Part shown: positions 4,189 to 10,100 of the stretch, piece after piece | Layout: each line of letters opens with the position of its first letter | How positions within the stretch are numbered: the first letter of the stretch is position 1 | Source of the DNA: Catajapyx aquilonaris | Lineage: Eukaryota | Direction of reading: 5' to 3' | Length of the DNA stretch: 23,689 nt | NCBI GenBank assembly: GCA_000934665.2 | Contig: KZ538298.1 | Location: 62,001-85,689 of the forward strand | The notes under the pieces: generated by a model | Database searches by the model: none | Told to the model about the DNA's origin: nothing | What the model saw: only the letters and a program-made list of their open reading frames with translations | Made by a program: the position numbers and the translations under genes

Positions 4189-7100
4189 GTGAAGGTTGTT
4201 AATTTTTCTTGATCTATTTTTGTTGTATATATGCCCAATAAAAAAAGTATACATTATGACACATCTGAACTGGGAATCTCAATGGGAGAGACAGATTTTT
4301 GTCTAATTGGTGGGCCTGTCTCTTGCTTGCAGGGGGGTGAAAGCACCACCACGGCGCGGGTGTCATCCTCGCGAATTAGATCCTCGGAAGAGCCACACAT
4401 AGGGAAGTACCGGCTGCTCAAAACTATTGGCAAAGGCAACTTTGCCAAAGTCAAACTCGCAAAACATCTGCCCACTGGGAAGGAGGTAAGTAGTTGGCTT
4501 GTGATTTTTCACTGAGAAAGGATCCCAAAATAACACCTTCACAATTGTTTCAGGTGGCCATAAAAATAATTGATAAGACTCAGTTGAATCCTGGCAGTTT
4601 ACAAAAGGTAAGCATATCCATTATATCCTTTACCCCTCATAATTTTTTTATTTACTCTCATTAGTACATGAATTTATGTTTGGAAGCAGTAACAAAACCA
4701 AATTGCGCTTTTTCCCATTATCTGTAAAGGCAGGCCACTTATGCACTGTAAAATAGGTGCTGAATGACCTTTGTTTTGTCGCATGATCCAAGGTTGTGAC
4801 TTTTTTCCTGTACACCCCCCTCTTACCACACTCAAAATAATAAGGAAGCCTTGCCTTTTTTGCTGCTGGGTGATTTTGGTTTCTTTTGTTGTAAGGAAAG
4901 GGTCCAATATATTATGGGTGAATTTCCCATCATGGTTCATTTATTATTACCTGCTTTCTTGGCTGTGAGGGAAAGAATGCAACCTTTCCACTTGAATACC
5001 CATAATTCAAAACTTCAGCTTTTAAGGCAGTGACTTGATCATCTGGAACATGAAGTCACCCTAAGTAAAGTGAAATTCATTATGGCTGACATTCCACATT
5101 GAATTTATATTTGAGTAGTTTCCTTACGTTACTTGAGTGAGTAGTAGAAACGATTTTGAACCTGCCATTATGAATTGGGGATGCAAATTCAACACTTGCA
5201 AAATACATTTGCAAGGTGTTGTAACAGGTCCTGAGAGTAAATTAGCATTTGGTAGACCTCAGCTTCACATGCAGTTGTCAAATCATGCTATTTGCATTTC
5301 TGCCTGACCATGAAATCATCAACCTGTAGAAAAGTGGACATGTCTCATGTATTACTTTTTCCCCATTCTTGCAGCTGTTTAGAGAAGTTAGGATAATGAA
5401 AATGCTAGACCATCCAAATATAGGTAAGTTACAGTAGTACATTAGAAAGACAATATTTATATTTGTAAAATAAGAGATAAGAGTTCAGCTTGGCAATTGC
5501 CTGTAACAGTTGCATAAGATGACCTTAAGTGTGGATGTCAGTTTCCATTCACAAGGGTGCCATATTTGGCAGTCCTTCCAAGGTCGAGGAGATATCTACA
5601 ATAGATGCTTATGATCTGCTCCTATTTTGCCACCTCACATCAGTCACTTGAGACAGACAATGCCAGTGCACATGCATATTGAGAGGTCTTAGGAATCACC
5701 ATGCAAACGGGGGGTCGTAATGAGAGTTGTCTTTTGCAGTGAAACTGTTTCAAGTGATAGAAACAGATAAGACACTCTACTTGGTCATGGAATATGCCAG
5801 TGGAGGGGAAGTTTTCGACTACTTGGTCTTGCATGGGCGAATGAAGGAAAAGGAAGCAAGGGCAAAGTTCCGACAGGTGATAAATTGGCTGCTGACAAGC
5901 CTCCTTCAGATAAGGCCTTCTGTCAACTCAAGAAATCCTAACATGCACTTTTTCTACTCCAGATTGTATCAGCTGTCCAATATTGCCATCAAAAGAAGAT
6001 AATCCATAGAGACTTGAAGGTATGGATCCGTTAACTCCTGATGCCCACTACACTCGAGCCTAATTTTTCACCATCCTCAAATCCCTCTTGGTACTTCTCC
6101 TGTGAAGTTTCTGCATGCAGATAAGCCACTGATATTATTTCCAGGCGGAAAACCTGCTGCTGGACAGTGAAATGAACATTAAGATAGCAGACTTTGGCTT
6201 CAGCAATGAGTTCACTCCAGGCAACAAGCTGGACACTTTCTGTGGGAGCCCTCCCTATGCAGCCCCAGAGCTCTTTCAGGGTGAGTTGTATTGTGAAAAT
6301 TATGGGGTTCCAGGAAACTTAGCAATGGGAGACTACGTGTCATTCATCCTTAACAGGAAAGAAGTATGATGGCCCCGAGGTGGATGTGTGGTCCCTGGGG
6401 GTCATCCTGTACACGCTAGTCAGTGGATCTCTTCCGTTCGACGGCTCAACACTCAGGGAACTGCGGGAACGAGTATTACGGGGCAAGTACAGGATACCCT
6501 TTTACATGTCCACGGACTGTGAGAATCTACTGAAGAAGTTCCTTGTGCTCAACCCTGCAAAGAGGGCGTCACTTGAGGTTAGTATTTTGCAACTTTTTTT
6601 TTGTTGTTCTAATTGGAACTTGAGGTAATTGGTGTGGGCTATTGCAGACCATCATGAAGGACAAGTGGATGAACATGGGTTATGAAGAGGATGAGCTGAA
6701 GCCATACTTGGAGCCAGAGCCTGATTTTAATGATCCCAAGAGAATAGGTGAGTTCCTTAATTGATTCTATTGATGCGCAGTAAGCAGATGCGTTGCAGTT
6801 GACTGTAATTTTATTTGTAAATTCCTGCCACATAAGAAGATGGTGCCTAATCCATCTGGCAAAATGTGAGATTAATATTTTCAGAGTTTGATAAATCAAG
6901 GAGAGGTTTCAAGATGACTGGAGCATATGGCAAAGTTTATAGTTTCAGACATGAAGTTATCATGGCTGTAGGTTGTATTATTTTACTGTGACGGGAGCTA
7001 AGGGTCTTTCCAAACGGCTGCCTTGCACTTGTTTATAAAGGCAACCTTCTTTTTTGGCAGACAGCGGGAAGCAGACAACTAGGATTGGTCAACGAGGTGA

Positions 7101-10100
7101 GTGATCTAAAAGGTCTGCCAAAAAAGGAATGCCCTTTGGAAATGTAATGAAAGCTTGTTAACGCTCCTGTGAGATCACAGGGAAAAAGGCGTAATTTAAA
7201 TGGCATTAGTAGGAAAGAATGTTGACATTTTCAGATTCCAGGTGCCATTGCTGCTTTCTTCCCAATGCAACTCGATGTGTTAGAATTTCAACAGTGGCCA
7301 TTCAAAATGCATGTTCAGAGAAAATAAGTTTGAAGTATATATGTTCAGTTTGTAGTGTCACACTTAGACAGTGGCAGAACCAAAGGTTTTTATTTCAGAT
7401 TTTTTTTTTTTTTTTTTTACTTTGTGATTTGTGATATGCAGGTTTTGAAAAGTATATGTGTGGTCAGCCTTACCTAAGAGAAACTTAAATATGAGGTGTC
7501 ACCTTGTTTCAGAAATCCTTATGGGTATGGGCTACAACAGGACAGAGATAGAAGACAGCCTGAAGAGCCAGAAGTATGACGACATCTTTGCCACCTACCT
7601 GCTGCTGGGCAGGAGATCAGCTGACGTAAGTCTCACCCTCACACTGAAACACAAAATAGCCAGATCCAACTTTTAGTGTAGCAGGACTGGCCGTGTCTTA
7701 AAGAAACTTCATGGAGAATCTCAGTCTTTAAAAACCTTCCCTCCTGTTCAAGACTGGCATGGACTAAGAGAAGCTAGACCATGGAAGGGGAATAAGGTTT
7801 TGATGGTCTAGGACTCTAGGTCCTAGGGTGGTCTAAATGGCCTAAAGTGTCTTCGGCAATGCAACAGGGCATTACAGACACACATTTGATAGTGAATTCG
7901 ATTTTGCTTGTTGGCACTATCAGTGTTTCAATGTTGTGCCAAAGACTAGACTAACTTAGAATGTATTTCTGAATATAAATTGTGACCAATGATCTTAGTC
8001 CACCCTAATCCTAGAACTAGCACAGACAAGCAATGTACTTCTGAATATGAGCCTCAGTATATTATAAGATCACATGACTGACACACTTGAAGGTGCTCAG
8101 GTGATTGACTTGGCGTTTCCTTTTCAGCTGGAGAGTGATGGCTCTCGTTCAGGCAGCTCGCTCTCCCTGCGCAATATCCCCCCAGCAGGTGTGGGGGGCA
8201 GCAACTCATCTCAGTCACCCTCTCATGGCCACAGGGGTGTACTTCGTTCCATCTCTGCTACTAACTCGAAGCCCAGTCGACGTGCTTCCTCTGGTGGGGA
8301 GAGCTTGCGTGAGTCCCAGGGCGACACTAGGGGTGGGTGGTGGGCTTCCTTTCCTCCTCTTTCGCATTTCATTTCATTCATATTTTTTAAAACTTTCTTT
8401 TTCTACACTTCCAACGGCAGCAGAACCCATTGTCACAAGTCTCACGGCAGTTTAGTTGGTTTTCTTCAGTCAGAGTTGTTGGCTTAAGGTTGGGATTTTG
8501 CTGATAACTGGTCCAGAATGTGATCAGTGTCATCAATTAATTATGTTAAAGCTTTCTCAAGTGGCAGTTATTGTTTACTTGTTTGATACAGGGATTTTAA
8601 ATCAGTCCAGGTTTTGAAGAGGAGATTATGGATTATGAGTCTAATAATAATGGCTCAATGCATCTCCTGTGTACAACTTGGCAAAACTAATGTTGGAGCT
8701 AAGGATGCCCTATTAGAAATGACATTGAAGAATCTAAAATGGAATTACTGAAAATTATAAATATTGATCTTATAATAAAATTTAAGGGGCTGGAACATCC
8801 TAGATATTTGCTGATCATTTTGAAGTGGTTGTCATCATATCTCATACAGACTGACAAAACTATTTGCCCAAATGAAAGATAGTTATCGATACATATTGAT
8901 ATAATAAGATGCCATGTAAAGATTTCTGAATATTTTAAAGTGTCAATCTGTTATGGAAATTTTGAAACAGTGGATTCTGCTGCATGTGATATAGTTGATT
9001 GCTCTGTTGCCTCTCATGGCTCTGTGCATGGACTTGCTCGAACTGCCCCAATCTTAATGATGTCACTTGACAAGAGAGGACAAAGAAAGAGTACAGGATT
9101 GCCTAGCGCATGAGTAACTTGCATTTTCTAGTTTGTGGTCTTAAAATGTTAAATTAAAATATATTTGAGGCGGTTTTTTTGCCTAGAAAGTTGTCATTCA
9201 CAGGTACAGTATTTAGTAATATGCATAAAGCGTGATTTGTAAGTTAGGTACCCCTAATTATTTTAAAAGCTACATTTTGGGATTGTATTTGTCGACACCC
9301 GCCACAATTCTTACAGGATATTTTTCCTAATAATGTCAGATAAGAAGTGAAGCCCAGTTTTTTGTTGTACCTGTTCTGGTGTTGCACAAATTATTCAATT
9401 GGCTCTTATGCCATTTTTACCTATATACAAAAAAAAGGTTAAATTGCTGCAGGAGGTCCCAGGAACATTTGTCACCTAACATTGCCATACTTTGAAAATA
9501 CCAAAAGTATTGAACATTCATAGCACCCCATGGTGACTAAGGGGGATTTTTTCAATACCAGATAATAATTATGGGAATGTTGTGTTTCATTTCTTCATCT
9601 TGCATTTTTAAGAAAACTTTGGAAACGTTGGAAGAAAAATTGGGATAGTTCATGGTAAACATAAGCATTGAAGACATAGGTTGTAATGATGTTTCAATCA
9701 GTTTGTGGAGGTATTGAAACAATGGGTATTTTGTTAAGTTAATGAACAGTTTGTTGGGATTTGAAATAGAACCAGGTTTGTAACACTATAAATCAGTTTA
9801 CATTGAATTAAAACTCATATAAATAAAATTGATTTAATGCACTATTTACCTACTTCACTTCTGTTACTTTGGTATGAAAATGAAGTAGTCAAATTGACTG
9901 GGAGCATATTTTAGCAATACTTATTCATATTGCATGTAGTATTTTTTTCCAAGTTCCATAAAAAGGACAAAAATGACATTTATTTCCAAACCATGTGTCA
10001 CACTGTCGATGCATGGCTTAGTATAGACACTTGAATAGATAGATGACTTCAATGTGTTTAATGCTTTACCTTGACATTGCTGATTTTTGAGGTTATGTTG

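Follow-up and report, generated by a model that had tools for sequence, protein, structure and literature searches.

A 23,689-nt stretch of genomic DNA from Catajapyx aquilonaris (positions 62,001 to 85,689 of contig KZ538298.1, forward strand), referred to below as the window and numbered from its first nucleotide, contains a protein kinase gene with a 36-nt intronic segment that looks like an exon. The acceptor of this segment takes part in an inverted repeat, and the locus raises the question whether the segment is an exon whose inclusion is controlled by RNA structure, as proposed in a first-pass annotation of the window, or an exon-like sequence that is kept out of the mRNA.

The segment lies in an intron of a par-1/MARK gene

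Judged by its sequence, the host gene is a par-1/MARK kinase gene of a pancrustacean arthropod and not a vertebrate MARK. A search with Pfam profiles returned the domains in the order kinase, UBA and C-terminal KA1, with two Pkinase matches of 44.8 and 48.5 bits and a KA1 match of 74.5 bits. The UBA_2 profile scored 22.8 bits, marginally below its cut-off of 23, and other UBA models matched below cut-off as well. The exons of the gene are collinear with arthropod MARKs (tblastn) and with the solved structures of MARK1-4. Exon 9 ends in phase 1 with one leftover G, as confirmed by a spliced contig (see below), and can be aligned to solved MARK1, MARK2 and MARK3 chains up to the last residue before the UBA domain; the following exon aligns to the UBA of solved MARK3, MARK4, MARK2 and MARK1. 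In the solved MARK1-4 structures no gap separates the two exons at the boundary between linker and UBA. The features of the intron between them and of the two exons are listed in Table 1.

Table 1. Features at the junction of the kinase and UBA exons (window coordinates)
Feature	Position	Strand	Basis and remarks
Exon 9, C-terminal kinase-domain extension, 33 residues	6648..6747	+	Constitutive; spliced contig, tblastn to arthropod MARKs
GT..AG intron, 765 nt, containing the whole feature	6748..7512	+	Spliced contig
Outer helix, 5' arm TTTCCAAACGGC	7007..7018	+	92% complementary; paired in minimum-energy folds
Small internal stem-loop between the two helices	7019..7043	+	6 bp (7019-7024 / 7038-7043), 13-nt loop; minimum-energy fold
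Main helix, 5' arm	7047..7062	+	Spans pyrimidine tract and AG and reaches 2 nt into the candidate exon
Candidate cassette, 36 nt, phase 1-1, stop-free, would add 12 residues	7061..7096	+	Sequence reading; skipped by the contig
Donor-like GTGAGT (GAG/GTGAGT), predicted accessible	7097..7102	+	8/9 consensus match
Main helix, 3' arm	7113..7128	+	Begins 16 nt past the donor
Outer helix, 3' arm GCCCTTTGGAAA	7131..7142	+	Repeat search and fold
UBA-domain exon, 38 residues	7513..7625	+	Constitutive; contig piece 7511-7625 (cut +2), Pfam UBA_2

Splice signals and reading frame of the candidate segment

Together with the G left over from exon 9, the segment encodes 12 residues and restores the E of EILMGMGY. 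Both its coordinates and its sequence were confirmed as those given in the first-pass annotation, which had described an in-frame, stop-free, phase 1-1 exon followed by a GAG/GTGAGT donor. The candidate acceptor, a CAG with its AG at 7059-7060, has 11 pyrimidines in 14 positions and a pyrimidine run of 11 nt. Among the intronic sites in the gene span that match the donor consensus in at least 8 of 9 positions, the full GTGAGT occurs only at 7097. Just two intronic places in the gene span of about 14 kb, 7061-7096 and 17604/17739-17854, were found to combine a strong acceptor with a donor match in at least 8 of 9 positions, and within the 765-nt intron the segment is the only exon candidate that keeps the frame. 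Acceptor, donor and frame in combination look functional, and the splice signals equal those of the real exons of the gene in quality. Preservation of the frame and lack of a stop codon are by themselves weak evidence, being expected by chance with an estimated frequency of about 1/3 x 0.55.

The acceptor is part of an inverted repeat predicted to be stable

The sequences 7049-7062 (CTTTTTTGGCAGAC) and 7113-7126 (GTCTGCCAAAAAAG) are complementary in 14 of 14 positions and separated by 50 nt, in agreement with the earlier description of a perfect helix that holds the exon and the donor in its loop. With one additional U.G and one U-A pair, the helix grows to 16 bp (7047-7062 / 7113-7128), which is short for an ADAR substrate. 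A T6/A6 run, of a kind common in introns, makes up six of the 14 pairs. The outer helix reported before was also found, with 11 of 12 complementary positions, and encloses the main helix. In the small stem-loop between the two helices, the loop contains, some 27 nt on the 5' side of the AG, a TTTAT that may represent a branch-point-like motif. The arms of the main helix overlap or flank the splice signals of the candidate.

The region 6995-7155 was predicted to fold at -51.8 kcal/mol (z = -3.1), a value reached by 2 of 200 shuffled sequences, and the energies for 7007-7142, for 7047-7128 and for the duplex of the arms were -49.1, -30.0 and -22.4 kcal/mol, respectively, in predictions that disregard proteins and helicases. 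The main helix was retained in both the minimum-energy and the centroid fold of the entire 765-nt intron. When positions 4000-14045 were scanned in sliding 140-nt folds, the segment ranked second of 282 (z = -3.85), and 7745-7884 reached z = -4.38; comparable folds thus occur elsewhere in the pre-mRNA, and the z-score of the candidate is not unique. With respect to accessibility, the mean unpaired probability of the candidate acceptor (-18 to +2) was 0.16 compared to 0.36-0.64 for nine real acceptors, and the candidate donor was predicted to be open, with an unpaired probability of 0.57.

In dinucleotide-shuffled versions of the window, perfect 14-nt inverted repeats with loops of 3-120 nt are expected at 0.04 per window, and 5 of 200 shuffles contained at least one. 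The real window harbors a second perfect repeat of this class (17437-17451 / 17457-17471), which, together with longer MITE-like repeats (see below), indicates that the background in the real genome is above that suggested by the shuffles.

The available mRNA skips the segment

The sole transcript evidence is one spliced contig of 4687 nt with a depth of 36.8, which is 100% identical to the window (0 differences). In this contig, position 6747 is followed immediately by 7513, with 6748-7512 removed in one piece; the junctions of its pieces are 6575>6646 (cut +2) and 6745>7511 (cut +2). The sample consists of one sequencing run of unrecorded kind and unknown tissue, which gave no read cover within the intron; uncovered intron bins were not counted as absence. 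The junctions 6747>7061 and 7096>7513, by which inclusion would be recognized according to the first-pass annotation, were not present in this single contig, and no contig of the run lay on 7061-7096. Because contigs drop rare variants, a low or tissue-specific inclusion would be compatible with this result.

Probably, the segment is a pseudo-exon within the intron, skipped by default, with the local hairpin predicted to occlude its acceptor; we estimate the probability of this reading at roughly 0.55. During transcription the 3' arm would follow the AG by only about 50 nt, and the hairpin could therefore close while U2AF and U2 are not yet committed to the acceptor. As this arm begins 16 nt past the donor, closure might occur once about 80 nt have been transcribed. 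The closed hairpin would leave the 36 nt and the donor in the 50-nt loop, and with the candidate occluded and looped out, exon 9 would be spliced to the UBA exon. The helix would in this way silence a cryptic exon by local splice-site occlusion and loop-out, and such a silencer would matter because the splice signals of the segment match those of real exons in quality. The helix may have been selected for this role, or it may be a by-product of a small palindromic insertion.

Local structures that block splice sites, and looping-out that favors exclusion, form an established class of mechanisms (PMC10790352; PMC8052449; PMC13019027), and a silent cryptic exon is not surprising since this class is well known. 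For tau exon 10, PMC10790352 describes a stem at the 5' splice site; there, too, a short local stem pairs a core signal and the exon is omitted. In our case, however, the acceptor tract and the AG are paired instead of the donor, the effect is a predicted one, and the exon has never been seen in RNA. Flanking complementary arms that loop an exon and favor its skipping are described for conserved complementary regions (PMC8052449) and for inverted Alu pairs (PMC13019027). In contrast to these long-range systems, the arms of the present repeat comprise 14-16 bp at a distance of 50 nt and one of them is the acceptor itself; moreover, the candidate is known from one sequence and has no identified repeat family. 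If the exon is never used, the locus would be a clean natural case of a strong-signal cryptic exon apparently silenced by a local stem, and as such useful for benchmarks of splice prediction.

The inverted repeat as a relic of an insertion

A rather unlikely alternative is that the repeat has no role in splicing and is a neutral relic, either a decayed palindromic insertion of MITE- or foldback-like type or a chance inverted repeat that carries AG and GT motifs. The layout is that of a decayed palindrome, with a left arm at 7007-7062, a right arm at 7113-7142 and an extra piece of 30 nt on the left only, and an inverted repeat spanning about 136 nt within an intron resembles MITEs and foldback elements. 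MITE-like elements occur elsewhere in the window, at 22873-23116 (29-nt arms, 97%), 11666-11833 (28 nt, 93%) and 14850-15215. We further estimate an expectation of about 0.3 frame-keeping, stop-free pseudo-exons as good as this one for a gene of such size. Unlike typical elements, however, the repeat has short, interrupted arms, and neither its arms nor the region 6950-7200 recur anywhere else in the 23.7-kb window. A target-site duplication is not visible at 7006/7143, where the flanks GGGTC and TGTAA share no direct repeat. Furthermore, one arm lies exactly over the acceptor of the best pseudo-exon of the gene, which we estimate to be a coincidence of about 1% or less if the two are independent.

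A relation to Rfam families or tRNAs was not found either. The entire window lacks Rfam matches at the gathering threshold, tRNA-like genes and, except for a T19 run, tandem repeats, and readings of the repeat as a miRNA, snoRNA or SINE were dropped for want of Rfam matches and tRNA-like genes; the plant microRNA precursor family MIR399 scored 26.2 bits on the minus and 17.2 bits on the plus strand compared to a threshold of 57.

Regulated inclusion of the segment

Doubtful, in our assessment, is regulated inclusion of 7061-7096 as a genuine cassette, with the stem being opened in some tissue by a factor, by a helicase or by an altered rate of elongation and 12 residues being added just before UBA helix 1. 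It is favored by splice signals that rival those of real exons, by the frame, and by in-frame inserts that other hexapod MARKs carry at the same junction. Among the matches listed, 87 of 202 proteins of at least 400 aa have an insert at the phase-1 KRI/E junction, directly before the UBA. In 82 of the 87, the insert consists of four residues encoded by the intron's first 12 nt, which read-through fragments suggest to arise from a tandem alternative donor. The inserts of a springtail (P0135, 6 aa) and a damselfly (P0087, 11 aa) lack the initial read-through glycine and for this reason look like cassettes. Isoform variation at exactly this junction in insects and springtails renders a cassette plausible without demonstrating it. 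The insect and springtail isoforms differ from the candidate in that most use the tandem donor, in that their insert sequences are unrelated to its 12 residues, and in that they are database predictions with no known RNA structure.

Besides the contig that skips the segment, several observations argue against inclusion. No protein with the candidate insert is present among the matches listed to the flanking exons (the best 120 of 306, and sets of 108 and 38), which is weak evidence as the protein database has no 100% match to the exons of the window, i.e., it contains no proteins of the species itself. In one set of 108 proteins, an insert at the junction is restricted to a springtail and a fig wasp and occurs in none named as crustacean. 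An insect-style tandem donor was ruled out, since position +12 (6760) carries no GT. In three distant metagenome relatives (L001, L002 and L003), whose exons are 70-80% identical and whose introns are too diverged to align, no trace of the exon was found. The orthologous intron of L001 (3.77 kb) contains neither a candidate exon nor a similar peptide, the best peptide score being 15 and the 95th percentile of the null 17; the L003 intron has a length of 72 nt, and both are distant relatives. Covariation or conservation of the helices was not seen with these three, all of which are too distant for an intron alignment.

Of the structure-gated splicing switch put forward in the first-pass annotation, the repressive half agrees with the strong predicted stem over tract and AG and with the mRNA contig, and the switch half is unsupported, with no inclusion junction in the contig, no insert-bearing protein among the matches listed and no trace in the three distant relatives. 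The segment is a candidate of interest and unproven, not an established splicing switch. Recursive splicing was rejected because joining exon 9 to 7061 regenerates no GT donor. Neural microexons of the eMIC/SRRM4 type are marked by a UGC motif upstream of the AG, and this type seems unlikely here, with no such motif close to the AG on its 5' side.

We consider it still less probable that the 36 nt are a tissue-restricted microexon of crustacean-type par-1/MARK, with inclusion gated by the acceptor hairpin, and a lineage-specific counterpart of the tandem-donor linker inserts of insects. If true, this would point to recurrent evolution of a variable length of the kinase-UBA linker in arthropod MARKs. 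The candidate insert would place a DSGxxT motif beside the UBA, which we take to resemble a beta-TrCP/Slimb phosphodegron. Use of the exon would lengthen the tether between kinase and UBA by 12 residues at the linker/UBA boundary, and the MARK UBA binds the N-terminal lobe of the kinase according to PMC2604893. The locus would then provide a compact, testable hairpin-gated microexon in an arthropod polarity kinase.

Variation at the kinase-UBA junction of hexapod MARKs

As an observation apart from the origin of the 36-nt segment, the KRI/E junction before the UBA varies in many annotations of hexapod MARKs. A targeted literature search returned no paper on a microexon or on variation at the kinase-UBA junction of MARK/par-1. 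This variation in hexapod MARKs may matter more broadly than the candidate exon itself.

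The host gene and its exon map

By its reading frames, the + strand of the window carries a par-1/MARK-type kinase gene. The Pkinase profile matched at 44.8 and 48.5 bits and the KA1 profile at 74.5 bits, UBA models lay at or just below cut-off (UBA_2, 22.8 versus 23 bits), and exon by exon the gene is collinear with MARK proteins of arthropods. Among the matches listed, the exon ending at 6747 was closest to insect MARKs (84-91% identity), and in the protein search the UBA exon was closest to Daphnia, Artemia, decapods and springtails (77-85%). The gene thus belongs to a pancrustacean arthropod, not to a vertebrate. 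All four aligned pieces of a 4687-nt contig from X1, a sequencing run of unrecorded kind, were identical to the window, and the contig's junctions therefore define two exons, 6648-6747, which ends in phase 1, and 7513-7625, separated by an intron of 765 nt.

Transcript junctions and repeat features in the window
Feature	Position	Strand	Details
X1 contig junction	6279>6356	+	cut +1, GT..AG
X1 contig junction	6575>6646	+	cut +2, GT..AG
X1 contig junction	6745>7511	+	cut +2, GT..AG
MITE-like element	11666-11833		terminal inverted repeats 28 nt at 93%, flanking 69-N gap
MITE-like element	14850-15215		terminal inverted repeats 31 nt at 77%
Perfect hairpin	17437-17471		15 bp, 5-nt loop, CAAGCAGTCCACAAG / CTTGTGGACTGCTTG; intron before KA1 exon
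MITE-like element	22873-23116		terminal inverted repeats 29 nt at 97%

A predicted hairpin on the acceptor of a 36-nt candidate exon

The first-pass annotation had described a cassette exon in this intron (7061-7096) with its acceptor locked in an RNA stem, and every feature it named was found in the sequence at the position given. The inner helix (7049-7062 with 7113-7126) is complementary at 14 of 14 positions and reaches 16 bp with one additional U.G and one U-A pair. The pyrimidine tract, the AG (7059-7060) and the first two bases of the exon all lie in its left arm, and its right arm starts 16 nt past the donor GAG|GTGAGT (7097). The outer helix (7007-7018 with 7131-7142) matches at 11 of 12 positions, and folding places a 6-bp stem-loop (7019-7043) between the two. 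The segment keeps the frame and would add 12 residues. The hypothetical insert begins (7061-7078) with DSGKQT, similar to the DSGxx[ST] phosphodegron of beta-TrCP/Slimb, a motif so short that the likeness may be chance.

Dinucleotide shuffling of the window yielded on average 0.04 perfect inverted repeats of 14 nt with loops of up to 120 nt (at least one in 5 of 200 shuffles), an estimate below the true background since the window itself holds a 15-bp hairpin and three longer MITE-like pairs (Table). The 161-nt segment folds with -51.8 kcal/mol (z = -3.1), and the fold is kept in whole-intron folding. In a 140-nt scan (282 windows, 4000-14045 only) the hairpin ranked second (z = -3.85) to 7745-7884, which lies in the intron following the UBA exon (z = -4.38). 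Region 7740-7890 gave -47.8 kcal/mol (z = -2.3), with a 9-bp GGUCUAG-type stem within 7745-7884.

The splice signals of the candidate segment are exon-grade. The 14-kb gene span has ten donor-like sites with a consensus match of 8/9 or better, six real and four intronic, and among the latter only 7097 has the full GTGAGT. A strong acceptor combined with such a donor was present at only two intronic places in the gene span. The other one, 17604/17739-17854 (donor AAG|GTGTGT), lies between the final two coding exons and may be an alternative exon or a further pseudo-exon. Within the 765-nt intron, the candidate is the sole frame-keeping, stop-free segment; four decoy TTTCAG|A motifs (6872-6885, 6936-6949, 7222-7235 and 7381-7399), similar to the true acceptor of this intron (GTTTCAG|A, at 7512), had no in-frame pairing with a good donor. 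A stop-free length divisible by three is weak evidence alone, and we estimate about 0.3 such pseudo-exons per gene of this size. What stands out is a coincidence: strong hairpins are few, and one of them has its arm precisely over the acceptor of the best pseudo-exon.

Predicted effect on splicing

The hairpin alone (7047-7128) has a predicted energy of -30.0 kcal/mol, with -22.4 for the arm duplex. In partition-function folds with 100 nt on either side, the candidate acceptor (-18..+2) had an unpaired probability of 0.16 versus 0.36 to 0.64 for nine real acceptors of the same gene, and the candidate donor was predicted to be open (0.57). According to these folds the hairpin probably occludes the acceptor: the inner helix would mask the pyrimidine tract and AG, and as transcription reaches its 3' arm some 50 nt past the AG, the stem could close early. 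Local structures that block splice sites (PMC10790352) and looping-out of exons (PMC8052449, PMC13019027) are established mechanisms, of which the feature described here would be a new instance.

Usage of the candidate exon and alternative readings

The segment acts as an intron in the sole transcript at hand, the X1 contig, which skips 7061-7096. Of the proposed structure-gated exon, the structure is real on paper, but the inclusion junctions sought for it did not appear in this contig. Rare variants are lost from contigs, and no tissue is recorded for the run, so low or restricted inclusion would be compatible with this result. The matches listed in the flanking-exon protein searches included no protein with this 12-residue insert, in a database that lacks proteins of the host species, as judged from the missing 100% match to the window's exons. 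Three metagenomic relatives, all distant, were compared: at this junction L002 has no intron, L003 one of 72 nt and L001 one of 3.77 kb, and these introns are not alignable to the window. The best score for a similar peptide in the L001 intron was 15, below the null 95th percentile of 17, and this intron held no candidate exon at the thresholds used for the window.

We favor, with a probability of roughly 55%, a default-skipped pseudo-exon silenced by the local hairpin. That the palindrome is a neutral relic is a tentative second reading, rather unlikely. A transposon or foldback origin would fit its asymmetric layout and the MITE-like elements elsewhere in the window, but neither a second copy within the 23.7-kb window nor a target-site duplication was found. 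A regulated 36-nt cassette exon is doubtful and the less probable of these two alternatives; its prior is raised by recurrent variation at the same junction in other MARKs, but that variation is mostly of another kind and was not seen in those named relatives that are nearest. On the sequence we rejected recursive splicing and a tandem donor and consider a microexon of the eMIC type improbable, and we take a sub-threshold match to the plant MIR399 precursor family (Rfam, 7027-7147, both strands; 26.2 bits on the minus strand versus a gathering score of 57) to be chance, driven by TGCCAAA...GCCC words.

Variation at the KRI|E junction

The phase-1 KRI|E junction directly before UBA helix 1 varies among annotated hexapod MARKs, a variation for which our literature search found no describing paper. 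Among 202 proteins of at least 400 aa listed in two flanking-exon searches, 112 join directly (two brine-shrimp proteins were re-classed to this group by eye), 82 carry a four-residue insert (GESA, GMTS or GLGT), five a longer one, two continue without UBA and one lacks the exon motif. The UBA is skipped altogether in two bee isoforms. Since the same four residues open genomic read-through fragments (KRI|GESAS..., KRI|GMTSG...), the short inserts would represent the intron's initial 12 nt, added via a tandem downstream donor, rather than cassettes; the window intron has no such GT at +12. The longer inserts comprise 6 aa in a springtail (P0135), 11 aa in a damselfly (P0087), both seemingly cassette-like, and 19-24 aa in mayflies. 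In the UBA-exon search (108 proteins), only the springtail protein and one from a fig wasp had an insert, and none named as crustacean did. When aligned to the solved MARK1-4 structures, the two exons are directly adjacent, with no gap between them. PMC2604893 describes the UBA as bound to the N-terminal lobe by way of an extended linker, and an insert at KRI|E, if used, would lengthen this kinase-UBA tether.
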